From an uncultured Candidatus Saccharibacteria bacterium (GTDB lineage: Bacteria; Patescibacteriota; WWE3; UBA101185; 2-01-FULL-41-18), in NCBI GenBank assembly GCA_964636285.1, contig CAZWQF010000001.1, positions 7,048 through 71,047 on the forward strand: a stretch of DNA of 64,000 nucleotides, in the 5' to 3' direction. The first letter of the stretch is position 1. Every line of letters begins with the position of its first letter. The notes under the pieces were generated by a model. That model saw only the letters and a program-made list of their open reading frames with translations. It was not told the origin of the DNA and made no database searches. Made by a program: the position numbers and the translations under genes. Positions 46,165-63,344 of the stretch are shown one piece after another.

Positions 46165-47292
46165 ATGAAATTTACCTGTCTCCAGGAAAATCTTGTCCGT
46201 GGGCTTTCTATTGTCAGCAAAGCAGTTGCTACAAGAGGTTCGCTTCCTGTTTTGTCTAACGTCCTTATTTCCGCGGTCGACGGTAGAGTTAAGCTTTCTT
46301 CAACAAATCTAGAAACCTCAATAACAACATGGATAGGAGCCTCTGTAGAAGAGGAGGGTGAAATAACAGTCCCATCAAAAGTTTTTCACGAATACGTTTC
46401 AAACATCCCCCCTTCGACAATAACAATTGAAGGAAGCGGAACAAATTTAAAGATCTCAAGTGACAAAGTTTCTTCAAAATTTGTAGGAATTGATGCATCT
46501 GAGTTTCCAAATATTGCAGCAGATGCAGATGAGGTTCACTTAACAATTGATCCAAAAGTTTTTGGCGACGCTGTCCTTGAAACTGCATTTGCTTCGGCAG
46601 CAGATGAGACAAGGCCGGTATTAACAGGCGTATTGTTAATTGGAAACGATGAGGGGTTGTACCTAGTTGGTGTTGATGGGTTTAGGCTTGCAGAAAGATC
46701 TGTAGCTTCAGAGTCCGGAAAAATTAAAAAAGAGTTTTCCGCAATTATTCCTGCAAAGATTCTCTTGGAGGTTGCTAGGCTTACGGCTTCGTTGAAAGAA
46801 CCACTAGAGGTGTCAGTTAACAAAGACAACACTCTTGTAGTGTTTAAGTCCGGCGACGTGGTTATTTCATCAAGGGTTATTGATGGAGATTTCCCTGCAT
46901 ACAAAGGACTTATTCCACATGTTGATACAAGAAGCGTTAAAGTTAAAATGGCCTCAAAGGATTTGGCAAGCGCCCTTAAACTTGCGAATGTATTTGCAAA
47001 AGACTCCGTAACTGTTGTGAGATTTAAGATAAGTAGTGATGACTCCGCAGTTTATATCCTTTCATCAAATTCGGAAGTAGGGGAAAACAGCGCAAAAATT
47101 GATGCTGAAGTTTCAGGTGGGGATTTGGAAATTGCATTTAATTCAAAGTACATTCTTGACGTTCTAAGTAACGTAAAATCTGACGAATTTATTTTTGAGT
47201 GTTCAGATAAAATTGGTCCTGGAGTGCCAGGGGTTTTAAGACCTTCAACTAGAGATAATCACCTTTACCTTATAATGCCCATGCAGTATTAA
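46165..47292 (+). CDS. dnaN: DNA polymerase III beta sliding clamp
   Basis: 375 aa, MKF..LQENL start and three-domain clamp architecture. Confidence 0.85.
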   Translation: MKFTCLQENLVRGLSIVSKAVATRGSLPVLSNVLISAVDGRVKLSSTNLETSITTWIGASVEEEGEITVPSKVFHEYVSNIPPSTITIEGSGTNLKISSDKVSSKFVGIDASEFPNIAADADEVHLTIDPKVFGDAVLETAFASAADETRPVLTGVLLIGNDEGLYLVGVDGFRLAERSVASESGKIKKEFSAIIPAKILLEVARLTASLKEPLEVSVNKDNTLVVFKSGDVVISSRVIDGDFPAYKGLIPHVDTRSVKVKMASKDLASALKLANVFAKDSVTVVRFKISSDDSAVYILSSNSEVGENSAKIDAEVSGGDLEIAFNSKYILDVLSNVKSDEFIFECSDKIGPGVPGVLRPSTRDNHLYLIMPMQY

Positions 47293-49304
47293 AAAATTGA
47301 TGAGACCCCATCGTTTGGCGCTTTTGCAACATCAGGTGTTGCAGGAGTTTGCATTTGTGCGCTTGAGACAGGCCCTGCATTTGAAGTTTGTTCTGTTGCC
47401 ACTTGAACGGGGGCTTGTGGCGCTGGTTGAGACTTTGGAATGTTGATTATTGGTTTGTACACTGCTTTTCCTAAAGTTGGCGTTGGTTCCGCTAGCGTAC
47501 CTTTTTCTCTTAACTTCAGCACATCAGTTGGCTTTGTTGTCACCAGTTTGTATTCTTCGTCAGAGGCCTCAACTTTCATTGCAACGTGATTGCTTCCTGC
47601 AAAGAACAAGCCTTCTCCAATTCCTGCGGATAATAGAAGCCTTTTTTCTCCTTCGGAAAGATAGAATACTTCTGCAAGCTTATCTATTGCAGCAGGGTGC
47701 TGTTTAAGGAGTACTTGAATGGACGAGTTTGTAATAATTGCCGTTCCATATTCGCTTGATAAAAAGTCTCCAACGTCCTGTGTAATTGTTGTAAGGCCAA
47801 GGAAATACTTTCTACATCTTTTTGCAATTCCGTAAAGGAACGTTGCCGAGTCTTTGTTCTGCATTAAGTACCAAGCCTCATCTACAAGCAAAATTCTCTT
47901 TCTTAAATCTCTCTTAATTCTTGTCCAAACAAAGTCCAGAATAATGTAAATTGCGATTGGTCTCAAAACATCTTCAAGTGATTTTGTGGAAAATACTGTA
48001 AATCTGCTTTCAAGGTCAATGTTCGATCTCTGGTCAAAAATTCCAGCAAGTGAACCTTTAATATATCTTTCAAGTCTTGACGCTAGACCTTTTGCTTCTG
48101 GCTCTTCCATTCCCAAAAGCACTTTATAAAGGTCTTCCATAATTGGAGGTTCTTTCTCTTTTTGTGTGACAGGGTCTGTGGTAATTCCCTTGATTCTGTA
48201 CGTTTCTACTAAGGCCTTATCCAAAAGAGACTCTTCAACATTTGTCAGTGTCCCGTAAATAATTTTAAAAAGCGTGTGCAGTGAAAGTATTTTTTGCCCA
48301 AGTTCGTTTTCACCTTCTACTGCAATTCCTGAAAGATCAAACGGATTAATTCTTGATGGCGAAGAGGAAGAGAACGAAATGTAGTTTCCTCCAACAGCTT
48401 CTGAGAGCCTTCTATACTCTTCTTCTGGGTCAACCACAATTATTTGTGCTCCAAAAACAAGTGATCTTAACGCTTCAAGTTTTACAAAGAACGATTTTCC
48501 AGCTCCGGCTTTTGCAAACACCACCATATTTGCGTTTTCCATTGAGAACCTATCAAAAATAATGAGCGAGCCGTTGTGCATGTTAACCCCGTACATAATG
48601 CCTTCGTTCTGAGTTAAGTCTGACGAGGTGAAGGGGAAAGTTGTAGCAAGGCTTGTTGTATCCATGTTTCTTGTAATCAAAAGTTTGTCTAGGCACAGCG
48701 GAATTGTAGATTGAAAAGCCTGCTCCATTTGAAGCGATGCTACTTTTGAGATTAAAAGAAGTGCTCCAAGAGTGGACTCAACTTTTTTTGTAATGTTGTT
48801 AAGTTCTTCAAGGCTGTCCGCCGGAATTGTTATATAAAATGAAAACTGGAAGAACCTCTCAATTCCTTTAACAAGCTGTTCCTGAAGTGACTGAGCGTCT
48901 TCAAGGGCTGCTCTAACTGCTGGGTCTACAACTTTTCCTCTTTCGGAATCTGTTTTTACCGTTGCTTCCATTTCCGCAATTTTTCTTCTGAGATCATCGA
49001 GAATACCTTTAGATTGCACTGGGTAGCAAAACATTGAAATATCAAGCGTGTGGTCAAAGTTGATGAGGGGAGATAGCCAGTTAGCTCCTACAAATCTTGG
49101 ATACCCTGACACAAACAAAGTTCTATAATACGAGTTTCCAATCCTAATATGAGTGAAGTCCACCTCAATACCTGAGGGCGCAATAATGTCTTTAACCGAA
49201 ACCATGCCTTGCGCAATTGTCTGCGCAGCTTTTTCAGCAGACTTATTCTGTGCGCTTGTTGTTTTTGCTTTATCCGATTTATCAAAAAGTTTAAAAATAT
49301 CCAT
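47289..49304 (-). CDS. type IV secretion ATPase VirB4/TrbE/TraC family, ATPase portion (start probably MDIFKLF at 49304, not 49406)
   Basis: Walker A AKAGAGKSFF, Walker B LLVDEAW, VirB4-family blocks; P/Q-rich C-terminal tail. Confidence 0.8.
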   Translation of the reverse strand: MDIFKLFDKSDKAKTTSAQNKSAEKAAQTIAQGMVSVKDIIAPSGIEVDFTHIRIGNSYYRTLFVSGYPRFVGANWLSPLINFDHTLDISMFCYPVQSKGILDDLRRKIAEMEATVKTDSERGKVVDPAVRAALEDAQSLQEQLVKGIERFFQFSFYITIPADSLEELNNITKKVESTLGALLLISKVASLQMEQAFQSTIPLCLDKLLITRNMDTTSLATTFPFTSSDLTQNEGIMYGVNMHNGSLIIFDRFSMENANMVVFAKAGAGKSFFVKLEALRSLVFGAQIIVVDPEEEYRRLSEAVGGNYISFSSSSPSRINPFDLSGIAVEGENELGQKILSLHTLFKIIYGTLTNVEESLLDKALVETYRIKGITTDPVTQKEKEPPIMEDLYKVLLGMEEPEAKGLASRLERYIKGSLAGIFDQRSNIDLESRFTVFSTKSLEDVLRPIAIYIILDFVWTRIKRDLRKRILLVDEAWYLMQNKDSATFLYGIAKRCRKYFLGLTTITQDVGDFLSSEYGTAIITNSSIQVLLKQHPAAIDKLAEVFYLSEGEKRLLLSAGIGEGLFFAGSNHVAMKVEASDEEYKLVTTKPTDVLKLREKGTLAEPTPTLGKAVYKPIINIPKSQPAPQAPVQVATEQTSNAGPVSSAQMQTPATPDVAKAPNDGVSSIF

Positions 49305-49305
49305 A

Positions 49306-50007
49306 TTATTCCTCAATAATTGCGGGTTCCACAATTGGAACTCCATAATCTTCAATTCCTGTTCTAATTCTCTGGTCATGAAGTGAGATTGGGTTGTACA
49401 CGTCAAAGAATAGCTCTACAAGCTCCTGTGTGGTCAGCTGTTTAGCTTTTATATTTAATCTAGCAAAGTCTCTGACTATTGAATCCCTCTTTGGGTACAG
49501 CTCAGTTTCTGCTGTCTTGATCGAACTGGGTACATCCACTTTAACTCTCTTTACTTTATTTCCCGAAAGAGTTTTTAAAAAGTCCAATGGCCCTCCATTA
49601 GGTGCAGCCATGATCATACCTGTTCCTGAAGGAATTGCTACGTAAAAGCTTTTGTCTAAAACTTCGTTCTTTTTAATAAGCTCCTGAACAAATTTTCTGT
49701 AAGCCTCTGCTTGAACTCTAAGAAGGGGATCCCTGATTTTATTTTCGATTGCTTGAACTTTATCTATATAGCTTGAAATATCAAGTTTCTTGCTCCTCAC
49801 TACAATTTGGATTGGATAAGTAAGCGAATTTAGTAACGAAGAGTACGCAGCAATAATTGCATCTTGTTCTACTTCGGATAAAAGGTCAAAGTTTACAGCG
49901 TTTGTTTTAAGTACAAGAACACAAGCCCCAGTTTTAAGAACAACTAGGTCTCTTGAAACTGTCTCAATCTCTAAATGATCTTGTGTGCTTTGTATAACTG
50001 CTGACAT
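49306..50007 (-). CDS. VirB4 N-terminal-domain-like protein (probably split from the downstream ATPase)
   Basis: 233-aa soluble ORF ending 2 nt before the probable VirB4 start; resembles CagE/TrbE N-domain. Confidence 0.45.
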   Translation of the reverse strand: MSAVIQSTQDHLEIETVSRDLVVLKTGACVLVLKTNAVNFDLLSEVEQDAIIAAYSSLLNSLTYPIQIVVRSKKLDISSYIDKVQAIENKIRDPLLRVQAEAYRKFVQELIKKNEVLDKSFYVAIPSGTGMIMAAPNGGPLDFLKTLSGNKVKRVKVDVPSSIKTAETELYPKRDSIVRDFARLNIKAKQLTTQELVELFFDVYNPISLHDQRIRTGIEDYGVPIVEPAIIEE

Positions 50008-50013
50008 ATTTGA

Positions 50014-52170
50014 TTAAAGTTTACCAATAAACTCTACTGGTGGTAATACCTCTCCTTTCACTTCAACACTTGCGGGCTCAAAAGTTTGTGGTATGTCCTC
50101 ATTCGGTTTTGTAACCTCAATTTTATACCTGCCGTTAGTAACCGGCGTTGTGATGCAGAATTGCCCAAGTTTGTTTGTTTTGAGTGCTCTTACCACATCC
50201 TCTTTTGAGTCTTTAATTATAACAACTGCACCTTCAACTAGCTTACCTTCTTTATCTTTCACTATTCCGTTGATCAGATTTGGTTGATTTGCAAACGAAG
50301 GGGCTTGAGCAAAATTTGCCGGTTTAGCCTCTATTGGCGCCTCTTTTATTGGTGGCGGGACTACCGGTTTTAAAATTACGGGCTGTGGTGTTTGCTCAGG
50401 TGCCTTTACTGATGCTGGGTCTGGTGTTGTTTCTGGTAGGTTTAATGGTTCAATCACAATCCCCTGATTTTTTGGTGGTTCTGGTGCTTTTTGTATTGGC
50501 TGTGGGATATCATACGTTTGCTTTTGTGTTTGCACCGTCTGATAAAGCCTCTGTTGAAGCTCGTTTATTTTTTGTTGCAGAGCAGAGATTTGAGTGTCTG
50601 CAACTTTCTTTTCATTCTGAAGTCTTAATAGCTCCATCTCAAATTTTTGCTTGTCGGCGGCACTGGAGTCCTGCATTTTTCTTTTGAGCTCTTCGATTTC
50701 TTTTGATAAATTATCGTTTGAGCTTTTTAGCTGGTTTGCTGCAGATTGGACTTCTTTTTTTGTTGCTTCTGTTTGAGTTGGTGTTTGAGATTTTAGATCT
50801 AGTTTGGCTCCAAGCTTAGCTTGCTGTACTCCTGCCTCTTTTTTAATTCGGTCAATAAGACCCATTAAATCTTTAGTCTTTTTTTCAAGATCTGAGTCAA
50901 ACTTTTGCTCTTCATTGACAGTGTTTAGGACTCTTTCGCCTCGAATGGGGAGAACCAGTTCACCTTGCTCTGCTGTCAGGTGTGTGAACCGCCTACCCGT
51001 TAGTCTGTCCGGAGTGATTGAGTTGTATGGTGTGTAAGTAATCTTTGGTTTACGGACGTTATCATTCACTCTGAATGCATTTGAGACTGCCGTTGGGGTT
51101 AGCTGAGTTTGGGATTTGAATTCTGGTTTTGGAGATTCTTTTGGCAAAATCTGAGGTTTTAGTTCAGGCTTTGAGGTTGCGGTCTGCTGAATTTGAGCCT
51201 GCACCTGAGGCTGTGTCCTAATTGGTTGCTGAGTCTGTGCTTGGGCAGGGGTGGGTTGCGCACTTACAGGGCTTGGAGTAGGCACGCTACTTTGCGTTTG
51301 TGTTGTTGCGGTTGGCTTTGGCATTGCGGGCTCCTTGCTAGCCATAGGTGGTTGCGATTGGGTTTGCTCTGCCAACTTTGGTTTAGGCTCCTGTAATTGA
51401 GGTTTTATTTCAGGTTTAACTTGAGGCGCTGGAGTTTGTGCTGGTGTTGTCTCCATTGCGTTTTCCTCTATGCCTTGAGGCTTGTTTTCTTGAAAGTTTT
51501 TGTTTATGGAGGGCTCTGTTCGAATTGGAGGTAGGCTTGTATCTTGAGCTAATGGGGTTGATGCAACGGGGGTATCAATAACAGATGTTTGCTGAGACTG
51601 GAACGAATGGTAAGGCTTAAAAAGCGTTGCCTGTTTTGTTGAAGCTTGAGCCTGGGTTGTAGTTGTACCCTCAAACGAGTCCCTGACTTTTTGTATGTAT
51701 TCGGCTTCTCTTTGTTCCATTGGGTCAAGAATGTGGTCGGTGACTTCTCTTTCAAGGTATTGTTCCAGTTTTCTTCGGCTTGCTGTTGGGGCAACAGCAA
51801 GCATTTCGTTTTTCAATTGATTTGCATTTTGGTATAGAAAATAGCTTGGAGGCTCAACCTCTTTTTTCCAGATTCGCTGAGTGGGGGAGTAAATGGCCAA
51901 AAAAAAGTTAACTACCCAAATGTCCATGCTTCTGTCTTGAATTGGGAGAAAGGCTACGGCAAGAGCAAGGCCAGCTACGCAGAGGGCTAGAGGGATGGCG
52001 ATGAACTTTGGAAGGCCTGAGGCAAAGGTTCCAAAAGCAAAAACAGCGCCTAGGACAAGATAGGCAAACTGTCTCATGGTCAGCTCTCCAATGACTTTAA
52101 ATTCCACCTGCATTATATTCTGTGGAACTGCATGTTGTTTCACACCTAGTGATACTTCAGAAATGGGCAT
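50014..52170 (-). CDS. T4SS-associated membrane protein: VirB3-like 2-TM N-terminus + P/Q/T-rich linker + coiled coil + C-terminal carboxypeptidase-regulatory-like beta-sandwich
   Basis: N-terminal pair of TM helices immediately upstream of VirB4 (VirB3 position); long low-complexity; C-terminal GIVKDKEGKLVEGAVVIIKD...GRYKIEVTKP CarbopepD_reg-like motif. Confidence 0.5.
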   Translation of the reverse strand: MPISEVSLGVKQHAVPQNIMQVEFKVIGELTMRQFAYLVLGAVFAFGTFASGLPKFIAIPLALCVAGLALAVAFLPIQDRSMDIWVVNFFLAIYSPTQRIWKKEVEPPSYFLYQNANQLKNEMLAVAPTASRRKLEQYLEREVTDHILDPMEQREAEYIQKVRDSFEGTTTTQAQASTKQATLFKPYHSFQSQQTSVIDTPVASTPLAQDTSLPPIRTEPSINKNFQENKPQGIEENAMETTPAQTPAPQVKPEIKPQLQEPKPKLAEQTQSQPPMASKEPAMPKPTATTQTQSSVPTPSPVSAQPTPAQAQTQQPIRTQPQVQAQIQQTATSKPELKPQILPKESPKPEFKSQTQLTPTAVSNAFRVNDNVRKPKITYTPYNSITPDRLTGRRFTHLTAEQGELVLPIRGERVLNTVNEEQKFDSDLEKKTKDLMGLIDRIKKEAGVQQAKLGAKLDLKSQTPTQTEATKKEVQSAANQLKSSNDNLSKEIEELKRKMQDSSAADKQKFEMELLRLQNEKKVADTQISALQQKINELQQRLYQTVQTQKQTYDIPQPIQKAPEPPKNQGIVIEPLNLPETTPDPASVKAPEQTPQPVILKPVVPPPIKEAPIEAKPANFAQAPSFANQPNLINGIVKDKEGKLVEGAVVIIKDSKEDVVRALKTNKLGQFCITTPVTNGRYKIEVTKPNEDIPQTFEPASVEVKGEVLPPVEFIGKL

Positions 52171-52343: not shown

Positions 52344-52372
52344 TTGAGAAATCAAGCAACCTATAGTATAAT
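52344..52372 (+). promoter_or_regulatory. sigma-70-like promoter TTGAGA-17 nt-TATAAT for the GC-rich ORF at 52429
   Basis: Hexamers and spacing read directly; SD AAGGAGGGG 7 nt before ATG. Confidence 0.45.
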
Positions 52373-52428: not shown

Positions 52429-52917
52429 ATGAAAAGTATTTGGAACTTCATCAAGGCCATTCCCGGGAGGATCGTGCACCTAAGCGCAATTGCGGTCATC
52501 GCGATCTCGCTGAACGCAGCACGTCCACTGGTCCCATTTTTCATGAGCCAGCCCCACTGGGCTATCATGATCGGTGGGGCGCTTGCGTTCTTCGCGGGAT
52601 GGACGTTACGTTCCGCATCTATGGGTAACCTCTCCGGCAGGACGCTTGGAGTGGTTTCGGGAGTTTTGATCACGGGGTTCGCCCTTGGTTACAATTTCCC
52701 AAACATCCCTAAAGTACAAGGTGTTGGTGATTTGATCATCGCTACCGGGAGGTTTTTCCAAGCAATTCCGATGGCTGCTTGGAACTCCCTGGGTCTGATG
52801 CACCTAGACCCAATCTCCCTGCCGATCGACCCCGATTACCCCTTGAGGGACGCTATGACGGCGTTTCTATTCATTGCGTCAGGGGTGTTTGGGTCGTACG
52901 GGAGGAAAGGGGCCTAG
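52429..52917 (+). CDS. GC-rich (~55-58% GC) hypothetical polytopic membrane protein inside the T4SS-like locus
   Basis: ORF with strong SD; compositional outlier; followed by hairpin 52927-52985. Confidence 0.5.
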   Translation: MKSIWNFIKAIPGRIVHLSAIAVIAISLNAARPLVPFFMSQPHWAIMIGGALAFFAGWTLRSASMGNLSGRTLGVVSGVLITGFALGYNFPNIPKVQGVGDLIIATGRFFQAIPMAAWNSLGLMHLDPISLPIDPDYPLRDAMTAFLFIASGVFGSYGRKGA

Positions 52918-54412: not shown

Positions 54413-57400
54413 ATGGCACCAATATTTAAAGCGGGGTATTACCCTGGAGATAAGCCAATAAGAAAAAACCCCATCCAGCCTGTTGAAAACCTAGACCCTT
54501 TTATGGAAGCAGCTATTAATGCTATTTCATTCGATCGGGATGCATTAGGGCTTCCTAATCGAATGGCAACTCTTCTTGAAAAGGACTATAGAAATGGGTT
54601 TGCCATTAGGTATGGTATCAGGGATCAGAATTATGTAGATGACAATATTAACAGAAGCATTAACGCAGGGCTTGCTGGAAGCGACCTTTCAATTGAGGAG
54701 GAATATAATGAGCTTCCAGGCGTTAGAGGGGCAAAGATTAACTTAGATCCAGAAACTATTGCAAAAGTTGGAGCTGGCGGTGTTGTCTCAAATACATTTA
54801 AAAGCATGCTTGATGCAGGATTTGCATTCAAGGACTTTTCGCTCAAGGCAGAGCTATATGGATTATGGGATCCGCTCTTAAACCCAGGAGTCTCATCCGA
54901 TTCTGTTCGGGCTGGTATGAGCCTGTCCTCTAGTGATTACATAAAAAGGTATCAGCCTGGAGTGACAGGTAAAATTTTGACACAACGTGATTTTTCAAAT
55001 GTAGATTCCCTAAATTCATCAATACGAGCGTATGTGCTCTCAAGCGGATCGGCCGTGGAGGAGCAGGCGTCTTTTACACAGGTAAAATATTTTTATTTTC
55101 AGTCTTTTAGGCAGGCATTTGAAAATAGTCCAGAAATTGCAAATATTGATGCCGATATTTTAACTTCAGATGCAAAATCTAGGCAATACGTTACTGATAT
55201 TTCAACTCTTACATCAACACTAGCAACAACGTCCGATCCTGCTACAAGGGCTGTATTATCACAACAGCTTGTACAAGCACAGGCTAATTTGGCAGGAGAG
55301 CAGTCAAAAGCGGCTAATTTACAATCTCTGAAGGCAGAGGCTGATGATTTAAAGCAGCTCTTTAGTGGAGTTAGAACTCCTGAAGACTTAGTCAAAGACG
55401 CAAGGAAACAGAATCCAAAGGCTGGATTTAATATAAAAAAACTAAGGGCTAACGAGAGAAGGTTGATGGATAACTTTTGGAAGGCTTCGGTTCATGGAAA
55501 AAATACCTCCATTACAAGAATGGCTGGAATCATGGGAGATAGGCGGCTTATTGCATGGAGCAGACTTATAGATTATAGAGAACGCGTTTCGGAAACCAGT
55601 GAGGTTATAGATGCAATTGCAAAAGGTGAGTTTTTTCAGCAATTTATTTGGAAAAAGTATGTCCTAAAAAGATTACCTTGGATAACACCAACATACGCAT
55701 TCTCAAAATTTTTTACAAACCCGGGAGACTTCTTTTGGAGAGCCTTTGTTAATGGGAAAATACCGTTGCCATTTACTGAGGCAACACTTCCTTTTTTTAA
55801 AATTCCATTTGTAACAGGGTTGTTTAATAGGTTTGGTGCGCTCGCTGACAGGCTTGTTGGGTGGGTGTCAGATCTTATAGTTAAAAGATTTGCTAAGGTA
55901 ATCAATTTGTTTGGTGGCAATGTTATTAAATCAGCTTTTAGTAAGATAAGTGGTTGGTTATATGGTGTTGGGGCAGGTTCTGGGGTTGGTTTACCCGCGG
56001 TTGTTGTTGCGGCTATAACCCAATATTTAGGAGAAAAAATTTTTGGTTTATTTAAATCCATATTTGATGGCGACTTTTTTGAGTACTTGGAGAAGCTTCA
56101 AGCAGAGGCTGCCCGGTTGGTCAGATTTTTATTTGGAGTAGTGCTACTGCTCATCAGTTCTTGCCTAGTCTTTGTTACAATTGCTACTTCAATCCTATTC
56201 CTTCCTTTTTCAGGAATGATGGTTCAGGACTATGGGTCAGGAGGAGGGGTAGAAGAGACTGACGTTGATTGTCCATTCGTAGATGAAAGCGAGCTTCCAA
56301 GAGATGCTAATGGCGTGAGACTTGATAATGTTAAGCCTCTTGAAGATATGATAAACGCATTAACAAATACATATGCTAATCCTAAGAGATCTCCCATGGG
56401 TGTAGGTACAGCTAACGAAGACAATATAAGGAAATGCTATGGCTACATTATTGCAAGGGCACTGCAGACGGCGAATGATCCTGCTATTGCTTTGGCTATT
56501 TGGATTGAAGAGACGGGTGCAAGCAATTATGAAGTTTATAACTTCCCCATTGATGATTTTGGATGCGGTAGGCCCATAGAATCCAATAACTTTATGGATC
56601 AACTTGAATGTTTCTTAAGATTACAAACTGCATATGCTACAAAACCAAGCCATGCAGAGTGTAGAGCTACAGAACCTTCAAATACCGAGCTTATTGTGCA
56701 TGAGTGGGGGCAGATATTTGCTTGTGGTGATTTAGCGTGTAGAGAGGGTAGGGCATATGATTTTTCTTGCTTGGCTGTGTGCGGTACCAATAAGACAGCC
56801 CCAGAATGTATAGACGGCACGTTGTGGTTTGATAATGTAAACACAATTTATTCGGCTGTATCAATTGGGGACAAAACTTTGGATTTAGATTGTATTTTAA
56901 CGGGCTCTACAATAAGATGGGATGACACTTGTAAACAGGGCTCAAGAATTAATGTTGATATACGAGGGGTGACAGGATTACTTGGACAAAACCTGCCTAA
57001 CTTTTTTAGGCGAATAGGGTATAAGGAAGTAATTTCTGATTATGATGACTACATTATACAGTGCTACGAAACCAGAGTAACTTATAACACAGGTTGTCCT
57101 CTTGCCTCCGGTAATTATCTGCATTGTGGTTTGGATTTAGTTGGAGATACTGTGGATGGAATTTATTCGGTGGAGGGTAAGGATGTTCGATCTCCATATC
57201 GTGGGACTGCCGTAGTGGATACTGTAGGTTATGATGCCGCAGGGTATGGAAATTATGTTGTCCTTGAGATTTCTGGTGATGGGGGAGATGATGACTCCAA
57301 TGAGGACTTCTTATATATTTTAGTTGGGCATTTAATAGATGGTTCTATAGGGGTATCCGTTGGAGAGCAGGTGGCATATAATGATTTTATCGGTCGAGTA

Positions 57401-57565
57401 GGGTCTACAGGTCACTCTACAGGGCCTCATGTGCATTATGAGATCAGATCAGGGGGAAGGTCTGCTGCTTATCAAGTTAATCCCTGTTACGTGGTGGCCT
57501 TCAGTGGGGAGTCCTGTCCTGGGACGACATTTGGCTCAAGTTGCTCGACTGCAATGTTAGAATAA
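54413..57565 (+). CDS. 1050-aa T4SS-associated cell-wall hydrolase: central lysozyme-like region + C-terminal M23 (LytM) metallopeptidase
   Basis: C-terminal HxxxD...HSTGPHVHYEIR M23 motifs; central ...AIALAIWIEETGASNYEV... glycosidase-like block; internal TM segment. Confidence 0.65.
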   Translation: MAPIFKAGYYPGDKPIRKNPIQPVENLDPFMEAAINAISFDRDALGLPNRMATLLEKDYRNGFAIRYGIRDQNYVDDNINRSINAGLAGSDLSIEEEYNELPGVRGAKINLDPETIAKVGAGGVVSNTFKSMLDAGFAFKDFSLKAELYGLWDPLLNPGVSSDSVRAGMSLSSSDYIKRYQPGVTGKILTQRDFSNVDSLNSSIRAYVLSSGSAVEEQASFTQVKYFYFQSFRQAFENSPEIANIDADILTSDAKSRQYVTDISTLTSTLATTSDPATRAVLSQQLVQAQANLAGEQSKAANLQSLKAEADDLKQLFSGVRTPEDLVKDARKQNPKAGFNIKKLRANERRLMDNFWKASVHGKNTSITRMAGIMGDRRLIAWSRLIDYRERVSETSEVIDAIAKGEFFQQFIWKKYVLKRLPWITPTYAFSKFFTNPGDFFWRAFVNGKIPLPFTEATLPFFKIPFVTGLFNRFGALADRLVGWVSDLIVKRFAKVINLFGGNVIKSAFSKISGWLYGVGAGSGVGLPAVVVAAITQYLGEKIFGLFKSIFDGDFFEYLEKLQAEAARLVRFLFGVVLLLISSCLVFVTIATSILFLPFSGMMVQDYGSGGGVEETDVDCPFVDESELPRDANGVRLDNVKPLEDMINALTNTYANPKRSPMGVGTANEDNIRKCYGYIIARALQTANDPAIALAIWIEETGASNYEVYNFPIDDFGCGRPIESNNFMDQLECFLRLQTAYATKPSHAECRATEPSNTELIVHEWGQIFACGDLACREGRAYDFSCLAVCGTNKTAPECIDGTLWFDNVNTIYSAVSIGDKTLDLDCILTGSTIRWDDTCKQGSRINVDIRGVTGLLGQNLPNFFRRIGYKEVISDYDDYIIQCYETRVTYNTGCPLASGNYLHCGLDLVGDTVDGIYSVEGKDVRSPYRGTAVVDTVGYDAAGYGNYVVLEISGDGGDDDSNEDFLYILVGHLIDGSIGVSVGEQVAYNDFIGRVGSTGHSTGPHVHYEIRSGGRSAAYQVNPCYVVAFSGESCPGTTFGSSCSTAMLE

Positions 57566-58506
57566 TGAACTTTATGAATTTTATGGATCAAACAAGAGTA
57601 CTTTTAGGTGATCTGTTAGGTACAAAAAAAGTATTCATACTTATATTCATCTTAATCCTGTCAGTAGCTGTAATTTCTGCATTTAGGTACACATCTTATA
57701 TTGAAAGAAAAGTGGTTGAAGACAGATCTCTTGAGATAGCATCTGCCCAGTTTTCGGAAGCATTGAAAAAAAAAGCCCCTCTTGGGTTAAAGGCTAAAAA
57801 TTTAGTAATAGGAGGAAATTTCACACAAGATCATATCCAAGAAATAAATAATGGTAGTTATGTCATGAAGTACTCCTTAATGGATCCAACTAAAATGGCA
57901 GGCGTGCTTAAGTTGAGGCATGTCTCTTCAAGTAATGTTTTTTTTCTTGCAGAGGGTAGCGGGTCACTGGAGGATTTTAGGTCGGATTATGAAGCTTATC
58001 TTAATTCAGCTGTAGGATCAGATGCAAAAAATGTTAAGTTTGAAGTGAAAGATACCTCTGTTCCTGGTATTAAGATTTATGAGGAGCGGAATGTTTTTGA
58101 GCTTAAAGAGTATACCTTACATGTTAATGGGTCTCCTGTTTATCAACTAGACTATGTTAATCATATTACGGTATACAGAGAGTCAGAAGGCTCAGAAATC
58201 TTTTATGTTAAAATGCCTCCTTTCTTTCCTCAGCCTAATGTTGAGCTGATTAAAAAAGATTTTGTTTCCGGAGTATATAACATGCAGCCGTTTATTCCTT
58301 TGGACCCTTCTCTTAGTAGCTATATTTACAGGGAGCTTCCAAAATTCTCAGTTAGGGATTTTAAAATTATTGATACATCTGCAAGTAGAGCCTTCTTTTT
58401 TGATAATTCTTTAGGTTATATGCTTCCTGTTTTAACAAAAGAGGTGATTTATTTAAGATCTGAGGATGTTAAAAATCCAAACTATTTATTTGTGTACTTT
58501 GATTAA
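57541..58506 (+). CDS. hypothetical bitopic membrane protein (VirB8-like topology)
   Basis: N-terminal TM + ~270-aa extracytoplasmic domain, T4SS locus context. Confidence 0.35.
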   Translation: MLDCNVRIMNFMNFMDQTRVLLGDLLGTKKVFILIFILILSVAVISAFRYTSYIERKVVEDRSLEIASAQFSEALKKKAPLGLKAKNLVIGGNFTQDHIQEINNGSYVMKYSLMDPTKMAGVLKLRHVSSSNVFFLAEGSGSLEDFRSDYEAYLNSAVGSDAKNVKFEVKDTSVPGIKIYEERNVFELKEYTLHVNGSPVYQLDYVNHITVYRESEGSEIFYVKMPPFFPQPNVELIKKDFVSGVYNMQPFIPLDPSLSSYIYRELPKFSVRDFKIIDTSASRAFFFDNSLGYMLPVLTKEVIYLRSEDVKNPNYLFVYFD

Positions 58507-58508: not shown

Positions 58509-60542
58509 CTATTCTTTAGGGGTTTCAATTGGAAACGACGATAGTCTAGATATACATTCTTTAGCTGCAGTGACCGTTCCAAGACCCTCGACACCATATG
58601 GCGTCGGTACGTCTGAGTTTCGAATGTTCGCTTTTGTAGTTGTAGTACCTATACCCCCTATACTTTGTAATGGAGTTATTGGGCTGGAAAGAGAGTCGCA
58701 AAGTACTCCACTCACAGCTCCAAGCTCCTTAGCTCTTGGAAGTTTAACATTTGCCATAGAATTGAATGCTTTTTGTGTACTACATCCTGGCGCTTGCGGA
58801 TCGCTTTGGCAGTTAATAATATCAATAAATTGAGAAAATGATGCAGTAAAACCTCCTTCAAGACATCTTCCGTCTGAGTCTTTTCCTCCTGTGCACTCAC
58901 ATTCCTGTCCAAAAAGATGCACATTATAAACATTACCTTTTGGCTTTTGTTTTGTTTGTACCTCACTGTCTGGCGTAGTGACAGTTGAAGCAATTTTGGT
59001 CATATTTGTGATTGTTGATACAGGTGAAAAGGAGCCTCCTCTCAGATTAACACTAGTAATATGTCTATACTCATCAATTCCCGAACCTGGGGAGCACCCA
59101 TATCCTGAGCAGCTTCCGTTGGGATCCACACCTTCTCCTGCTATACTTGGGGTTAGTTCAGCTCTGTCGGGATCAATATCTTTAAGTCTATAGTACGGAA
59201 AAAATTCTGGTTCAAATGAGGTTTCATTAAACTCAAAGCTAAGTTCTTGTTGTGCAATATACATTGGAGGTCTAAAGTTTCTAGCAGATACTTTAGCTCC
59301 ACTATTGTCATAACAAATGTCAGGATTCTCAGAATATAGTTGTAGTACTTGCTTTTTTAGTTCTTCTGGATTTGAAGTTTTGATTAATCCTCCTCCGCAA
59401 GCTCCCTGATTCATCCCACGGAATCTAGCGTTGATGTCTCTTATATCGTCACATGAAGGAGCAAGACCATCTTTTGTGAAAGCAGATGGGTCGCATCCAA
59501 GAGCTGTGCTTGTACCTTCAACAAAAGCAGCTCTGTCGGTTGTTAAATCATCAGGGGTGACTGTGGCACCAGATACGTATGCTACAAGCGCTTGAGCGCA
59601 CATAGCTGGGTTTCTTAAACAAGAAAAGCCTGCATTAAGTATTGGGATTGCATTTCTCCAGAGGTAATCCACTGGGGTCTTATCAAGCTGGTTTATCTGA
59701 TTTTCACATGTATTTTCATAATCGGTTTTATCTACCAGTTGTCTCATACATACATCGTTTTCTTCACAGAAGCACTGTTCGTTTGTACACCTTGTAGCCC
59801 CACTTATATATATCGGAGGGATAGTGACGTCCTTTGTTATTACTCCAGTTTCATCCTGCCACACAATTCCTTTTAATACTTTAATTTCCTTACCACAAAA
59901 AACCCCTATAAACAGGGGTTCTTCAGGTAAATCTGAAATCTTGTACTCACCGCGAGGGCTTTTATTTCCCGTGGATAATGTAGAGTTGCTTTCGGTATAT
60001 GTGTATCTTCTGGTAGCCTTGTATTTCCCAGACTTATTGGCAAGATAGGGATCTTCTATCCAGGCAATCGTAGCACCTATGAGCGGTTTGATTTTTCGCT
60101 TAGCAAGAGGTATCGAGGATTCTTCCTGGGTTGCTATTTCTCCCTCATCAATTGCGTATATTTCTCCTAGTACAGAATGTTCTCCTCTTTTTGAAGGTCT
60201 CCTTTGACATGTTGATTTGTGCTTGGCCAAATCACACGGTGCCCCCTCTTCATCACAATCTGGATGGTTGTTGTCCTCATTATCACAAGTTGATGGGTCG
60301 TCTTGGATAGTCTGACATCTACCAATGTCCCCTCCATTTTCAGCTACGCATCCTCTATGACATGCACCGTTTGCTCTGTTTTCGCAAACAGGTGCGGTGC
60401 TAGAACAATTTTGAGCATACACATTATCCTGACTGTTACATGCAAAAAACAAGTTCATCAAAATAAATATTGAGAGTGTTGTTAATCTGTGCATGAATTT
60501 TTTCATACTGTGTTTAAAATTATTGAGTGAATGGGTCTCCAT
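58509..60542 (-). CDS. large secreted Cys-rich protein (677 aa), putative adhesin/ectodomain
   Basis: Signal peptide, >40 Cys in CxxC/CxC spacing, no TM elsewhere. Confidence 0.5.
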   Translation of the reverse strand: METHSLNNFKHSMKKFMHRLTTLSIFILMNLFFACNSQDNVYAQNCSSTAPVCENRANGACHRGCVAENGGDIGRCQTIQDDPSTCDNEDNNHPDCDEEGAPCDLAKHKSTCQRRPSKRGEHSVLGEIYAIDEGEIATQEESSIPLAKRKIKPLIGATIAWIEDPYLANKSGKYKATRRYTYTESNSTLSTGNKSPRGEYKISDLPEEPLFIGVFCGKEIKVLKGIVWQDETGVITKDVTIPPIYISGATRCTNEQCFCEENDVCMRQLVDKTDYENTCENQINQLDKTPVDYLWRNAIPILNAGFSCLRNPAMCAQALVAYVSGATVTPDDLTTDRAAFVEGTSTALGCDPSAFTKDGLAPSCDDIRDINARFRGMNQGACGGGLIKTSNPEELKKQVLQLYSENPDICYDNSGAKVSARNFRPPMYIAQQELSFEFNETSFEPEFFPYYRLKDIDPDRAELTPSIAGEGVDPNGSCSGYGCSPGSGIDEYRHITSVNLRGGSFSPVSTITNMTKIASTVTTPDSEVQTKQKPKGNVYNVHLFGQECECTGGKDSDGRCLEGGFTASFSQFIDIINCQSDPQAPGCSTQKAFNSMANVKLPRAKELGAVSGVLCDSLSSPITPLQSIGGIGTTTTKANIRNSDVPTPYGVEGLGTVTAAKECISRLSSFPIETPKE

Positions 60543-60981
60543 GCAAATCTAGAAAATCTGAAATTGATTGCAACGTTTCTTCTAATCCGGCTACGCTAGA
60601 ACCTCCAATAAAAATTCTAATAAGAATATTAATCAAACTGACTGCTCCTAAAACTGCTACAAATCCTATCAATCCCCATGTTAAGCTCTTTTTTGCCGCC
60701 TCGATTGCTTTAGAATCTCCTTCTGACAGCGAGTATTTTATGGATCCATAGAGAGTTATTATTATAAATGCAAATCCTACTGCCCCGAGGAGGTAGTTAA
60801 TGCCCGTAGTAATAGGACATGCTAGCTCACTTAAAGCTGGTGGGTCCGAAACGGTGCAATTGAATTGAGCATAAGCTTTGTCTGGAAAAAGGCAGAGAAA
60901 CCCAAATAATATTAATGTTAAGCTTAAATATTTTTGGCTAAACAAAGAAAAAAAATTTCTAATTTTAAATTGAGCTACCAT
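60520..60981 (-). CDS. VirB2/TrbC-like pilin paralog 1 (signal peptide + two hydrophobic helices)
   Basis: Conserved GSIKYSLSEGDSKAIEAAK loop between two TM helices, shared with four downstream paralogs. Confidence 0.55.
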   Translation of the reverse strand: MVAQFKIRNFFSLFSQKYLSLTLILFGFLCLFPDKAYAQFNCTVSDPPALSELACPITTGINYLLGAVGFAFIIITLYGSIKYSLSEGDSKAIEAAKKSLTWGLIGFVAVLGAVSLINILIRIFIGGSSVAGLEETLQSISDFLDLHGDPFTQ

Positions 60982-61264
60982 AATCAGTACCTCCTAACAT
61001 CCTTACTATAATCGCCCTTAATGAAACTGCAACCAAGGCTATAAATAGTGCAGTTATTGCAGCAGTAAGGTAGGACTTTGCCCCTGCGATTGCTTTAGAA
61101 TCCCCCTCTGACATTACATACTTGATACCAGAAATTATAGATGCAATTAAGGCTGCTGCTAAAGCTATTCCAATTAGCACATTCGTCACGATACCCAGTA
61201 CTCTTGAAACAGAAAAATTATATTCCCCAAAAGGACCCTCGACCTGGTTTAAAATCTCGCTCAC
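60965..61264 (-). CDS. VirB2/TrbC-like pilin paralog 2
   Basis: SGIKYVMSEGDSKAIAGAK motif between two TM helices. Confidence 0.55.
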   Translation of the reverse strand: MSEILNQVEGPFGEYNFSVSRVLGIVTNVLIGIALAAALIASIISGIKYVMSEGDSKAIAGAKSYLTAAITALFIALVAVSLRAIIVRMLGGTDYGSSI

Positions 61265-61292: not shown

Positions 61293-62588
61293 CTAGCTAC
61301 CTAAGAAAGTTGTAACTACCCACTTAAGGAAGCTAATACCTAAAATTGCCATTACAACGCCTGCAGCTGCTGCAGTAAGCTCCTCATGCCCTAATTGTAT
61401 TTTTTGTGGGTCTCCTTCACTCATTAACATGTGATATCCGCCCATTATTGCTTGGTATGCCGCTATTATGACGACTAATGCCCCTACCGCCGTTGCAACG
61501 TAGTTAATTAAACCCGCTGGGTCCATTGCTACCGGAAAGTTGGGAGATGGCGGTGGGTTCTTAATAAGCTCAATTTCCTCCTGCATCCCTTGGCATATTG
61601 CACTGCATGATCCCAGGTTATTGTGAATACAGGCTGTATCAGTGCTTCCTGGAGCACATTCAGAGCAACCACTACCTAGAACGCACTTATATAGTTTAGT
61701 CTCACTAGCTGTAGAAACACATAGCCCATCATCTCCACTCGCATTGATTTGATCGCAATCGCCTCTATTTCCTGCTCCGCTGTCGCATGTTTCATTAGGT
61801 CCGCAATCTACGGGGCTTGAGCAGTTACAGGAGGTTGAAGCTCCAGAAGGGTTTTGACATGTATAGTTACTAGTATTGTTATTTGTAGGCCTGCACAAAA
61901 AGTTTGCACTTGCAGACTGGCAACAGCCTAAATTTCTTAAAGCCCCTGGAGCACTTCTACCGCAAACTTGTCCTGGTGCAATACAGGTTACCTCTGCAAC
62001 GCACCTATTTTGTGTTACATCACATGTGAAGCCGGAGGCACATTGGCTTGATCCAGGGCTGTTACATTCCACACAAGTGCTTATTGTTTCGCCTGGATTT
62101 TTACAGTGTCTGCCTGAGGGATTACTTTGACAATCCTGATCTCCTCTACAGATAACACATTCTGCGGTGTCCACATTACAGATATTTCTAGTTTGATTTT
62201 GACATTGGGAATCATTAGAGCATCCTATAGCCTCACAATTACTGCTACTGGTCCCTTTTTGCTTACAATAGGGGGTACTCCCTGGACAATCATTATTATC
62301 TCTGCAAGCTACACAAATACCGCCTTGACCATTACAAACTGGAAAGCCTTGATTTCCCATACTTGCGCTTGTATCTGCAACATAGCAAATTTTATTTTTT
62401 ACATTACTGTTACAAGAGGAAGGTTGAGCGACACACGTATAAGATCCGCTTGCGGTTACTAATCCCATTCCACACTCACCGTTCACAGCATAAGCTGGTT
62501 TTTGAAGAGTGCTAATAATCCCAATAACTATCAATAAGACTAAAGTAACATTGTTTAGTTTTGAGATTACACTAAGTACCTTCTGCAT
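61293..62588 (-). CDS. Cys-rich ectodomain fused to C-terminal VirB2/TrbC-like pilin module (431 aa)
   Basis: Signal peptide, ~330 aa with ~50 Cys, then ...AYQAIMGGYHMLMSEGDPQKIQLGHEELTAAAAGVVMAILGISF pilin-like hairpin. Confidence 0.55.
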   Translation of the reverse strand: MQKVLSVISKLNNVTLVLLIVIGIISTLQKPAYAVNGECGMGLVTASGSYTCVAQPSSCNSNVKNKICYVADTSASMGNQGFPVCNGQGGICVACRDNNDCPGSTPYCKQKGTSSSNCEAIGCSNDSQCQNQTRNICNVDTAECVICRGDQDCQSNPSGRHCKNPGETISTCVECNSPGSSQCASGFTCDVTQNRCVAEVTCIAPGQVCGRSAPGALRNLGCCQSASANFLCRPTNNNTSNYTCQNPSGASTSCNCSSPVDCGPNETCDSGAGNRGDCDQINASGDDGLCVSTASETKLYKCVLGSGCSECAPGSTDTACIHNNLGSCSAICQGMQEEIELIKNPPPSPNFPVAMDPAGLINYVATAVGALVVIIAAYQAIMGGYHMLMSEGDPQKIQLGHEELTAAAAGVVMAILGISFLKWVVTTFLGS

Positions 62589-62590
62589 AG

Positions 62591-62908
62591 TTATATACCC
62601 ACGGTTGTCCTTGCACTATCAATGTTTCCTCCTAAGGCACTAACAATTATAGATCGGATTGACATTGCAGCTATGACTATGACAAAACCTATAATCGCAT
62701 TGGTGAGCCACTCTCTTGCAACCATCGTGTTTGCTTTATCCCCTTGGCTCATGATGTATTTAATACCACCAAGAATTAAATAAATAATTGTAAGTGCAAT
62801 TCCTGAGCCGAGTGCAATATTGTACACTACTCCAAAAATTGAACTTAAACTTGTAAATCTATTGTTGAGAGGGTCAACAATATTTGAATCTACTTGTGCA
62901 TATACCAT
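62591..62908 (-). CDS. VirB2/TrbC-like pilin paralog 4
   Basis: LGGIKYIMSQGDKANTMVAREWLTNAIIGF; no in-frame upstream start (in-frame TAA 8 codons upstream). Confidence 0.55.
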   Translation of the reverse strand: MVYAQVDSNIVDPLNNRFTSLSSIFGVVYNIALGSGIALTIIYLILGGIKYIMSQGDKANTMVAREWLTNAIIGFVIVIAAMSIRSIIVSALGGNIDSARTTVGI

Positions 62909-63020
62909 ACTTTTATTATAACCACCTTTTTATTTCTGTAAACTCGAATTACACTCGTATCTATTAAAACCAAAACAGGGCGGTTGTCCGCCCTGTACAT
63001 TGGAAAGAAATCAGTTTTTA

Positions 63021-63344
63021 TTAAGCGGGTGTTACTCCACTCACTGCAGTGTTGGATGCGCCTAGAAGATTTCCTACGATTGATCTAATCACGAATGCTC
63101 CAAGGACTACAATAAAACCAATGATTGCGTTTGTGAGCCATTCTCTTGCTACTTGAGTATTAGCTTTATCCCCTTGGCTCATGATGTATTTAATACCACC
63201 AAGAATTAAATAAATAATTGTAAGTGCAATACCAACACCCAGCACTACATTCATTATCATACCAAATAGATTTGGTAGGTTGGTTAATGTTGAACCTTCT
63301 AATGGATTTGTTGGGGTTACATCTACATTTTGTGCGAATACCAT
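63021..63344 (-). CDS. VirB2/TrbC-like pilin paralog 5 (recent tandem duplicate of 62591-62908)
   Basis: 64-bp identical DNA block (62737-62800 = 63167-63230) and near-identical protein core. Confidence 0.55.
   Translation of the reverse strand: MVFAQNVDVTPTNPLEGSTLTNLPNLFGMIMNVVLGVGIALTIIYLILGGIKYIMSQGDKANTQVAREWLTNAIIGFIVVLGAFVIRSIVGNLLGASNTAVSGVTPA

Follow-up and report, generated by a model that had tools for sequence, protein, structure and literature searches.

The window, i.e. the whole stretch of 64,000 nucleotides analysed here, belongs to a genome of candidate division WWE3 and carries, between positions 47,289 and 63,344, a gene cluster of about 16 kb for a type IV secretion system (T4SS) or pilus. 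The genes that a first-pass annotation had claimed for this region were found where it had placed them, and profile searches of the kind it had proposed returned matches to the VirB4, Peptidase_M23 and CarboxypepD_reg families. The left flank of the cluster consists of core genes. Hereby, dnaN directly abuts virB4, with rnpA, yidC and jag located further upstream. The adjacency to dnaN had previously been overlooked, as had a TrsD-like gene for a 233-aa protein and a membrane ORF of 162 aa.

The ATPase of the system is a VirB4-like protein of the CD1110 family (671 aa; 47289..49304, minus strand). It scores 397 bits against the NCBIfam profile NF045971 (cutoff 325), covering profile positions 173-752 and lacking the first ~170 positions, and is additionally matched by Pfam P-loop_TraG (6e-32), by AAA_10 and by the VirB4 structure PDB 4AG5 (E 3e-52). 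With Walker A (GAGKS, residue 267) and Walker B (ILLVDE, residue 471) motifs present, its initial designation as VirB4 stands. Among more than 7,996 database matches the best 120 listed are 67-100% identical, and the source-named entries among these 120 all stem from CPR bacteria, mostly WWE3. Because of these matches, the earlier suggestion of a reduced-genome, CPR-like host is supported at the level of sequence comparison. The closest plasmid-borne VirB4 proteins, from Firmicutes and Actinobacteria, show 31-38% identity; judged from identities and family scores, the protein belongs to a CPR-specific VirB4 clade related to MPF-FATA. The TrsD-like gene (233 aa; 49306..50007, minus strand) ends 1 nt ahead of the virB4 start codon. 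Its product matches NF041427 (TrsD) with an E value of 3.5e-9, which is below the cutoff, and aligns with the N-terminal parts of two further profiles, VirB4_plasma (positions 112-231) and CD1110 (positions 26-118). On these alignments, it is a putative separately encoded (split) homologue of the VirB4 N-terminal domain.

TrsD-like and PrgI genes both lie beside virB4, the spacing within this group being 1 and 6 nt. The PrgI/VirB3 homologue (718 aa; 50014..52170, minus strand) is the VirB3-like fusion protein noticed at the outset, and both of its parts score above their Pfam cutoffs (PrgI, PF12666, 35.1 bits, cutoff 27; CarboxypepD_reg, PF13620, 34.0 bits, cutoff 32.3). A two-helix hairpin at residues 35-75 is followed by a P/Q/T-rich linker, a coiled coil and a C-terminal CarboxypepD_reg beta-sandwich. 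The fusion is kept in five of five related loci, with linkers of ~70-630 aa. For the polytopic membrane protein of 440 aa (53007..54329, minus strand), first described as VirB6/TrbL-like, the predicted structure model finds its best matches in VirB6 (TrwI) and DotA, which suggests a VirB6-like protein with a VirB6/DotA-like protochannel fold. On the opposite (plus) strand lies the hydrophobic ORF of 162 aa (52429..52917), which is called as a gene on a Logan contig and has a promoter-like consensus match nearby (TTGAGA-17-TATAAT, 52344-52372). It has no family match in Pfam or NCBIfam and no homologue in the related loci L005 and L006, and it is uncertain whether it is part of the T4SS.

An envelope protein of 1050 aa is encoded at 54413..57565 on the plus strand. 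The first-pass annotation had read it as a giant lysozyme-like/M23 hydrolase, and the M23 half of this description holds: the C-terminal metallopeptidase domain (PF01551, 1.9e-11) retains both zinc motifs of the LytM type, HCGLD (HxxxD) at residue 904 and HVH (HxH) at residue 1006, which are invariant in the L002 orthologue, and PDB searches return M23/LytM matches. The lysozyme-like half found no sequence match, since Pfam, NCBIfam and PDB sequence searches detected no lysozyme or SLT domain; residues ~615-880 form a Cys-rich insert instead, which is missing from the L002 orthologue. The N-terminal domain of ~510 aa has no signal peptide and is followed by one or more TM segments (518-590). 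At its stop codon the M23 gene overlaps with the start of the next one, which encodes a bitopic protein of 313 aa (57565..58506, plus strand; 321 aa from 57541) with one N-terminal TM helix at residues 22-40, so that the earlier remark on VirB8 topology applies to the topology as such. Pfam, NCBIfam and PDB sequence searches gave no match, and the AF2 model (pLDDT 42) is unusable. SEML1_0012, which occupies the corresponding place in Southlakia, is NTF2-like. By its position, the WWE3 protein is a candidate VirB8-like subunit.

Five tandem pilin ORFs, recognised as such from the beginning, follow on the minus strand. The operon of pilin genes is closely packed, with the gene for a Cys-rich secreted protein as its last member. 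Three score above the PF18895 gathering threshold and two below, yet all five align with the family and show the hairpin of two hydrophobic helices and the conserved S-x-G-D loop expected of VirB2/TrbC pilins. Pilins of this type usually mature from a leader-bearing form; three of the five have no leader peptide, and none matches a solved pilin structure in PDB by sequence. They sort into four classes whose orthology extends across the WWE3 relatives. The leaderless 107-aa pilin (63021..63344; PF18895, 1.6e-7) has a GGAGG Shine-Dalgarno sequence, an in-frame TGA five codons upstream and a 60% identical orthologue in L006. It is preceded by a promoter-like consensus match (TTGACA-16-TAAACT, 63382..63409, minus strand), promoter-like sites being, over the region as a whole, no more numerous than in shuffled sequence, and is followed by an intrinsic-terminator-like hairpin (62975..62996, minus strand; 9 bp, 7 of them GC, then a T-run). 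It is thus likely to form a transcription unit of its own and is a candidate for the major pilin. The 105-aa pilin (62591..62908, no leader; 3.6e-7), ahead of which a further promoter-like consensus match is located (TTTACA-16-TATAAT, 62942->62915), shows 56-64% identity to the 107-aa pilin, and a tract of 68 nt is identical in the two genes; by this comparison it appears to be a recent duplicate.

The largest pilin is a fusion of 431 aa (61293..62588), in which a signal peptide and an ectodomain of ~320 aa with 40 Cys, arranged in CVxC...DC...C repeats, precede the C-terminal pilin hairpin (PF18895 at residues 359-416, E 1.2e-3). Its orthologues in L005 and L006 have 351 aa and 296 aa, respectively. 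The leaderless 99-aa pilin (60965..61264; 1.8e-3, below cutoff) aligns with the family, retains the S-x-G-D loop and has a 49% identical orthologue in L006. The 153-aa pilin (60520..60981; 1.7e-7, 31.6 bits, cutoff 26.6) possesses a signal peptide (KAYA|Q), 2 Cys in its mature part and orthologues in both L005 and L006. The 677-aa Cys-rich secreted protein of the earlier description (58509..60542, minus strand; 665 aa when translation begins with the Met at 60506) indeed has 31 Cys, and its signal peptide, with VYA|Q at its end, leaves 30 of them in the mature part. Only four matches were obtained among 1.84 billion representatives, neither Pfam or NCBIfam families nor PDB entries matched, and the gene found at this place in L005 and L006 is weakly, though colinearly, similar. 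By these searches, the protein would be classed as a near-orphan.

Gene order is identical in two relatives, where the locus again lies beside dnaN, so that chromosomal position and order are common to three genomes. The order pilin array, VirB6-like protein, PrgI, TrsD and VirB4 is also kept in more distant metagenome loci. Identity to the relatives is ~80% for VirB4, above the 62% of DnaN, and amounts to 66-70% for the TrsD-like protein (L005/L006), 62% for the PrgI N-domain, 35% for the VirB6-like protein, 28-41% for the M23 protein, 25-32% for the 313-aa protein (L005/L006) and 22% for the Cys-rich protein. Conservation hence declines from the motor toward the surface.

The closest described counterpart is the cluster SEML1_0006-0019 of Southlakia epibionticum ML1, a member of the Saccharimonadia, a class distinct from WWE3 (PMC10633639). 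Both share the order VirB4, small protein at the TrsD position, PrgI, envelope protein of ~1000 aa, bitopic protein, VirB6-like protein and PF18895 pilin array. The Southlakia cluster likewise has no recognisable coupling protein or relaxase, and its low locus-tag numbers suggest that it is ori-proximal, too. In contrast, Southlakia PrgI comprises 300 aa with no beta-sandwich reported, whereas the WWE3 protein is fused to one, and the six Southlakia pilins are simple, with neither a Cys-rich pilin fusion nor a Cys-rich secreted protein noted. Moreover, the Southlakia T4SS has been shown experimentally to be essential for epibiotic growth (Wang 2023, PMC10633639). The locus also agrees with a Patescibacteria-wide catalogue of the same system (Quinonero-Coronel 2025, PMC12102498) in its MPF-FATA-related VirB4 clade, TrsD, PrgI, divergent VirB6, M23-containing VirB1 substitute, VirB2 array (2-11 genes in the catalogue), missing relaxase and position near dnaA/dnaN, the T4CP usually being distant. 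The main text of that study mentions neither PrgI-CarboxypepD_reg fusions nor Cys-rich pilin fusions nor WWE3. There, pilin arrays are taken to be variable paralogues that reach no more than 54% identity, whereas the WWE3 array contains four cross-genome orthologous classes and one recent duplicate pair of 56-64% identity.

Compared to the Gram-positive MPF-FATA systems (pCF10 Prg/Pcf, pGO1 Trs, CTn2 CD1110, pIP501), the locus shares a CD1110-family VirB4 above cutoff, TrsD, PrgI, weak CD3337/EF1877 membrane-protein similarity and a large multidomain cell-wall hydrolase. It differs in the low VirB4 identity to their plasmid-borne relatives given above, in being chromosomal and syntenic across genomes, in the lack of a T4CP, a relaxase and a PrgB-type surface adhesin within the 64-kb window, and in carrying VirB2-like pilins, of which those systems have none. 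Unlike A. tumefaciens VirB and R388 Trw, it lacks a VirB7/9/10 outer-membrane core, VirB11 and a recognisable VirB5; three of its five pilins are leaderless, and none resembles a solved pilin in sequence.

In the mechanism we propose, the VirB4 ATPase together with the separately encoded TrsD-like N-domain would dock on a membrane platform of PrgI/VirB3 and the VirB6-like protein, pull VirB2-like pilins out of the membrane and polymerise them into a pilus. In VirB-type systems, pilus biogenesis is independent of VirD4. The M23 peptidase would locally open the peptidoglycan and thereby let the pilus cross the cell wall. Because of the promoter and terminator consensus matches and the orthology described above, the 107-aa pilin, with its own promoter and terminator, would likely be the major subunit and the remaining conserved pilin classes minor subunits. 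The distal, host-contacting parts would likely be the fusion pilin with its 40-Cys ectodomain and, co-transcribed with it, the Cys-rich secreted protein. Pilus and channel would then serve contact or exchange with a host cell and not conjugation. The model leaves the predicted cytoplasmic placement of two regions unexplained, namely the N-domain of the M23 protein and the C-terminal extension of PrgI. To our knowledge, no T4SS pilus of a CPR bacterium has been demonstrated biochemically so far.

The families of VirB4, TrsD, PrgI and the VirB6-like protein were all defined on conjugative elements of Gram-positive bacteria, and the view of the right flank ends at position 64,000; the locus might therefore be an integrated conjugative element (ICE) or what remains of a conjugative module, with relaxase and coupling protein just beyond the window. 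A conjugative system would carry a relaxase and a VirD4/TcpA coupling protein beside its MPF genes, and an ICE in addition an integrase or recombinase and a mobile-element boundary. However, no relaxase, T4CP (VirD4), VirB11 or integrase was found among all ORFs of at least 300 aa in the 64 kb scanned, the first three being absences already listed in the first-pass annotation; nor was a relaxase or T4CP present in the flanks of L002 and L006. The GC content of the locus is 0.406 and that of the remaining window 0.383, VirB4 exceeds DnaN in conservation, the L006 locus stops at the first pilin and continues with a SpoIID-domain gene, and relaxases occur near virB4 in only 15 genomes of the catalogue (PMC12102498). 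Because housekeeping genes flank the locus and two related genomes share its synteny beside dnaN, the comparison supports the earlier view that it is not a standard conjugation module or ICE, and we consider a conjugative origin of this kind extremely improbable. A coupling protein gene could sit elsewhere in the genome, outside the 64-kb window; in many CPR genomes T4CP homologues are encoded far from virB4 (PMC12102498).

A DNA-uptake (competence) machine like Helicobacter ComB or archaeal Ced, with DNA as nucleotide source, would fit the absence of a relaxase, the lack of nucleotide synthesis in CPR bacteria and a secreted nuclease homologue encoded in the window, and VirB4 weakly matches the DNA-import ATPases CedB (E 2.9e-13) and CedD (1.3e-3). 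The CedB match, however, scores 49 bits where the cutoff is 700 and thus reflects generic VirB4 similarity only. Moreover, the locus has no ComEC- or ComB-specific components, and Southlakia achieves competence via T4P and ComEC, where a comEC deletion is viable although the T4SS is essential (PMC12857230). DNA uptake is thus a quite unlikely function. Unlikely, too, is a role mainly as translocation channel for effector export or import of host macromolecules, e.g. RNA, with the pilins forming a short stalk or periplasmic conduit. The modelled VirB6/DotA-like protochannel fold would be compatible with it, and protein export or uptake has been suggested (PMC10633639; PMC12857230; bioRxiv 10.64898/2026.06.21.733656). 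Nevertheless, a T4CP for recruiting cytoplasmic substrates is missing from the locus, and four conserved pilin classes together with one pilin that bears a large fused ectodomain favour an elaborate external structure. A channel function overlaps with our best explanation, and the two are not mutually exclusive.

In conclusion, the 16-kb stretch is a chromosomal, relaxase-free T4SS/pilus cluster typical of ultrasmall CPR/Patescibacteria. Most probably it encodes a vertically inherited, MPF-FATA-derived T4SS of the Patescibacteria type in a WWE3 bacterium, located ori-proximally near rnpA-yidC-jag-dnaN and serving as a machine for contact with a host cell or for exchange with it. The observations of the first-pass annotation are thereby confirmed and its interpretation is partly supported: the epibiont-host interface role would be carried over by analogy from Saccharibacteria, and the description of the apparatus as poorly described is outdated because the same system has been catalogued across Patescibacteria (PMC12102498), besides being essential in Southlakia (PMC10633639) and the subject of a review in which the pilus is proposed to act as conduit (PMC12857230). 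At a CPR-host interface, tubular structures have also been reported (bioRxiv 10.64898/2026.06.21.733656). The apparatus is thus real and not of a new kind, having been described in papers from 2023-2025. To this picture the WWE3 locus adds modest new details, namely the division of the pilins into four classes with orthology among the WWE3 relatives, a pilin fusion rich in Cys, a conserved PrgI-beta-sandwich fusion and a near-orphan Cys-rich protein.

The relaxase-free T4SS/pilus cluster at 47289-63344 proved real, and the first-pass annotation had located and itemised it accurately, except that one 233-aa gene was overlooked. The cluster starts beside dnaN (46165-47292, +), which is convergent with the first T4SS gene, virB4 (47289-49304, -). 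The encoded 671-aa VirB4-like ATPase has NCBIfam, Pfam and PDB matches: it scores 397 bits (cutoff 325) with the NCBIfam model "VirB4-like conjugal transfer ATPase, CD1110 family" over profile positions 173-752, and matches Pfam P-loop_TraG at 6e-32 and the solved VirB4 C-terminal domain (4AG5) at 3e-52. Both Walker motifs are intact, A as GAGKS at residue 267 and B as ILLVDE at residue 471. The overlooked gene (49306-50007, -), whose stop lies 1 nt ahead of the VirB4 start codon, encodes a protein that matches TrsD at E = 3.5e-9 as well as the N-terminal part of VirB4 profiles. The N-domain absent from the 671-aa VirB4 is therefore supplied by this 233-aa TrsD-like protein.

Adjacent to these motor genes lies a gene for a 718-aa fusion protein (50014-52170, -), in which an N-terminal PrgI/VirB3 domain is joined through a P/Q/T-rich linker and a coiled coil to a C-terminal CarboxypepD_reg beta-sandwich; both domains exceed their Pfam cutoffs. 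The same fusion is present in all five CPR loci with a complete gene, i.e. the window, two loci of close relatives (L005, 6925-8592; L006, 5322-7994) and two distant metagenome loci (L014, 8851-9846; L015, 10241-11290). Among the five loci, strong conservation of the beta-sandwich (VRALKTNKLGQF) goes along with a hypervariable linker of about 70 to 630 residues. For the 620-aa extension, the two-helix hairpin of PrgI predicts a cytoplasmic location, on the side of the N-terminus. This is puzzling, as the extension looks extracellular. Further along, a hydrophobic 162-aa ORF (52429-52917, +) shows neither a family match nor a homologue in the relatives, and is followed by the gene of a 440-aa polytopic membrane protein (53007-54329, -). 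In the family of the latter, three of ten members match NCBIfam CD3337/EF1877 (E about 1e-3) and one matches Pfam TrbL (E = 9e-3), while PDB sequence and profile searches came back empty; by sequence, the protein is thus a weak VirB6 candidate.

The 1050-aa protein encoded at 54413-57565 (+) carries a C-terminal M23 peptidase with intact HxxxD and HxH motifs, preceded by an N-domain of ~510 aa in which neither a signal peptide nor a known family was detected. The lysozyme-like domain initially proposed for this protein is rejected at the sequence level, as Pfam, NCBIfam and PDB sequence searches do not support it; the residues in question (about 615-880) form a Cys-rich insert that is absent from the orthologue in locus L002. 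The following gene (57565-58506, +) encodes a 313-aa bitopic protein (p313) with a single N-terminal TM helix. Its homologues were detected in close relatives only, PDB and profile searches returned no match, and an AF2 model built from the sequence by itself was unusable (pLDDT 42). In the corresponding cluster of Southlakia, the protein at the position of p313, SEML1_0012, is NTF2-like according to the authors' structure-based annotation (PMC10633639). Because of this positional analogue, and given its topology, p313 is a reasonable candidate VirB8.

Five pilin genes and, after them, the gene of a Cys-rich secreted protein occupy the minus strand from 63344 to 58509. All five pilin ORFs match PF18895 (T4SS_pilin): the 153-, 105- and 107-aa proteins exceed the gathering threshold, and the 99-aa protein and the C-terminal part of the 431-aa one fall below it. 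Their alignment reveals a hairpin of two helices joined by a conserved S-x-G-D loop. The 431-aa pilin consists of a signal peptide, a disulfide-rich ectodomain of ~320 aa that has 40 Cys and includes CVxC...DC...C repeats, and the pilin hairpin. The 107-, 105- and 99-aa pilins possess no leader peptide. For the 107-aa pilin, the start codon is fixed by a GGAGG Shine-Dalgarno sequence and by a TGA in frame, five codons upstream, which excludes an overlooked signal peptide; a longer ORF for the leaderless pilins is excluded by the upstream in-frame TGA. Leaderless pilins in the window (62900-63344, -) and in L006 (18696-19022, -) begin with MV[FY]AQ or MHMAYA. These N-termini resemble the AYA|Q signal-peptidase motif of their leader-bearing paralogues and may be the vestige of a lost leader.

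The 107-aa pilin gene is bracketed by a promoter-like site of its own and a strong terminator hairpin; the remaining four pilin genes and the gene of the Cys-rich protein lie close together or overlap. Since promoter-like sites in the region are no more numerous than in shuffled sequence, single sites are no more than suggestive. The 105- and 107-aa pilins are 56-64% identical, and their genes (62591-63344, -) are perfectly identical over 68 nt (alignment columns 115-182) between much more divergent flanks, which suggests recent gene conversion between the tandem paralogues. The Cys-rich secreted protein contains 31 Cys, has four matches among 1.84 billion representative proteins and shows weak colinear similarity to the L006 gene in the same position. 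PDB sequence and profile searches returned nothing for the Cys-rich proteins and the pilin profile. Upstream of the array, an ORF of 168 aa that starts with GTG (63445-63951, -) has no family match and no homologue in the related loci. Look-ups of identical proteins returned nothing for this ORF or for the 107-aa pilin.

We compared the locus with loci from other genomes and metagenomes. More than 7,996 database proteins match the VirB4, with 67-100% identity for the 120 best listed; most of the named best matches among those listed belong to candidate division WWE3. The complete gene order beside dnaN is common to the window and two relatives, WWE3 RIFCSPHIGHO2_01_FULL_40_23 (L002, L005, L011) and Patescibacteria H41-bin102_1 (L006, L010). 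In these two, identity to the window declines from the motor towards the surface: compared to 62% for DnaN, it amounts to 80% for VirB4, 66-70% for the TrsD-like protein and 62% for the PrgI N-domain, and then to 35% for the VirB6-like protein, 28-41% for the M23 protein, 25-32% for p313 and 22% for the Cys-rich secreted protein, where similarity is detectable at all. In the relatives, an orthologue occupies the corresponding array position for every pilin of the window, with the 105-aa pilin as an extra copy found in the window alone; because of this orthology across genomes, the pilin classes are not simply variable copies. In L006, the first pilin marks the end of the locus, followed on the other strand by a SpoIID-domain gene and a membrane-protein gene. 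Four distant metagenome loci (L014, L015, L017, L022) show the order pilin array, VirB6-like, PrgI, TrsD, VirB4, with one to seven pilin genes on the recovered contigs; in L015 a large protein is encoded between the array and the VirB6-like gene.

The GC content of the locus is 0.406 vs 0.383 elsewhere. The closest plasmid-borne VirB4s, annotated as CD1110 family, stem from Firmicutes and Actinobacteria and reach 31-38% identity. The flanks and the synteny argue against an integrated conjugative element, and we rejected this hypothesis. As the first-pass annotation had stated for relaxase, VirD4 and VirB11, none of these, nor an integrase, was found among window ORFs of at least 300 aa. The other ORFs scanned are of housekeeping or transport type, comprising dCTP deaminase, ThyX, SHMT, SufBCDS, DnaG, RpoD, MetRS, FolD, RnpA/YidC/Jag and DnaN, along with a two-component system, ABC/MacB/HlyD transporters and ion transporters.

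The ori-type cluster rnpA-yidC-jag-dnaN (42059-47292) lacks the adjoining dnaA seen in L002 and has FolD and an unassigned ORF in its place, which indicates a local rearrangement. A tRNA-Thr(UGU) at 2685-3068 (-), found by ARAGORN only with the intron option and overlooked by the default scan, carries a group I intron of 309 nt in its anticodon loop (Rfam RF00028, 103.6 bits, 2734-2957). ThyX (4499-6124, +) is unusually long (541 aa); its best Thy1 stretch (residues 318-507) and a second matched stretch suggest that the protein is partly duplicated or has a long extension at its N-terminus. A staphylococcal-nuclease homologue (18371-18862, +; E = 1e-27) is consistent with nucleic-acid scavenging by an organism without nucleotide synthesis. 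Positions 1-2000 (GC 0.477 vs about 0.38 elsewhere) hold overlapping ORFs on both strands; the ORFs scanned there have no Pfam matches, no rRNA was detected, and the region could be foreign or non-coding.

The locus is a further member of a system that has already been described, so that its initial characterisation as poorly described is out of date (PMC12102498, PMC10633639, PMC12857230). Quinonero-Coronel et al. (2025) describe the system across Patescibacteria: VirB4 forms a sister clade to MPF-FATA, TrsD and PrgI are abundant, VirB6 is divergent and VirB8 rare, M23-containing hydrolases are present, and arrays of 2-11 VirB2 genes occur in 383 assemblies; relaxases are almost absent, homologues of the coupling protein lie mostly distant from virB4, and the system is often close to dnaA and dnaN (PMC12102498). 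The main text of that survey mentions neither WWE3 nor Cys-rich pilin fusions nor the PrgI-beta-sandwich fusion. Tn-seq in Southlakia showed the homologous cluster, pilins included, to be essential for growth as an epibiont; its gene order matches that of the window (Wang et al. 2023, PMC10633639). Furthermore, a 2025 review proposes the pilus as epibiont-host conduit (PMC12857230), and a 2026 preprint reports tubular structures at a CPR-host interface (bioRxiv 10.64898/2026.06.21.733656).

The component set, operon structure, conservation pattern and absence of conjugation genes in the window are direct observations; the mechanism draws on established knowledge of VirB-type pili. Biogenesis of such pili requires VirB1-B11 and not VirD4, and VirB4 acts on membrane pilin. 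By extension, VirB4 and TrsD would be seated on a PrgI/VirB6 platform and polymerise pilins, with the M23 peptidase clearing peptidoglycan. With its transcription unit of its own, the 107-aa pilin probably serves as the major subunit. A role as minor or distal subunits in contact with the host is probable for the remaining conserved pilin classes, for the fusion pilin with its Cys-rich ectodomain and for the Cys-rich secreted protein co-transcribed with them. The rapid divergence of these parts is consistent with such a role. A tentative and on balance unlikely reading goes further, namely a WWE3 pilus of several pilin types with a Cys-rich host-specificity tip and the PrgI beta-sandwich as an element of the machine. 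Hereby, the 107-aa pilin would form the shaft, three other WWE3-orthologous pilin classes would serve as minor or adaptor subunits, and the pilin with the 40-Cys ectodomain, together with the near-orphan Cys-rich secreted protein, would constitute a fast-evolving tip that stands in for the absent VirB5 and determines host specificity. As for the beta-sandwich of the PrgI/VirB3 fusion, it would be a structural part of the machine for which no T4SS characterised so far has an equivalent.

To our knowledge, the T4SSs of CPR/Patescibacteria are the only ones known to be essential to their carrier and the only monoderm T4SSs with VirB2-like pilins. The locus adds a clean WWE3 example and comparative detail, namely a motor conserved above DnaN, surface parts diverged to near-orphans, pilin orthology, the disulfide-rich pilin fusion and the conserved PrgI-beta-sandwich. 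These WWE3 details, which account for most of its moderate interest, provide candidate host-recognition parts and specific targets for structural work.
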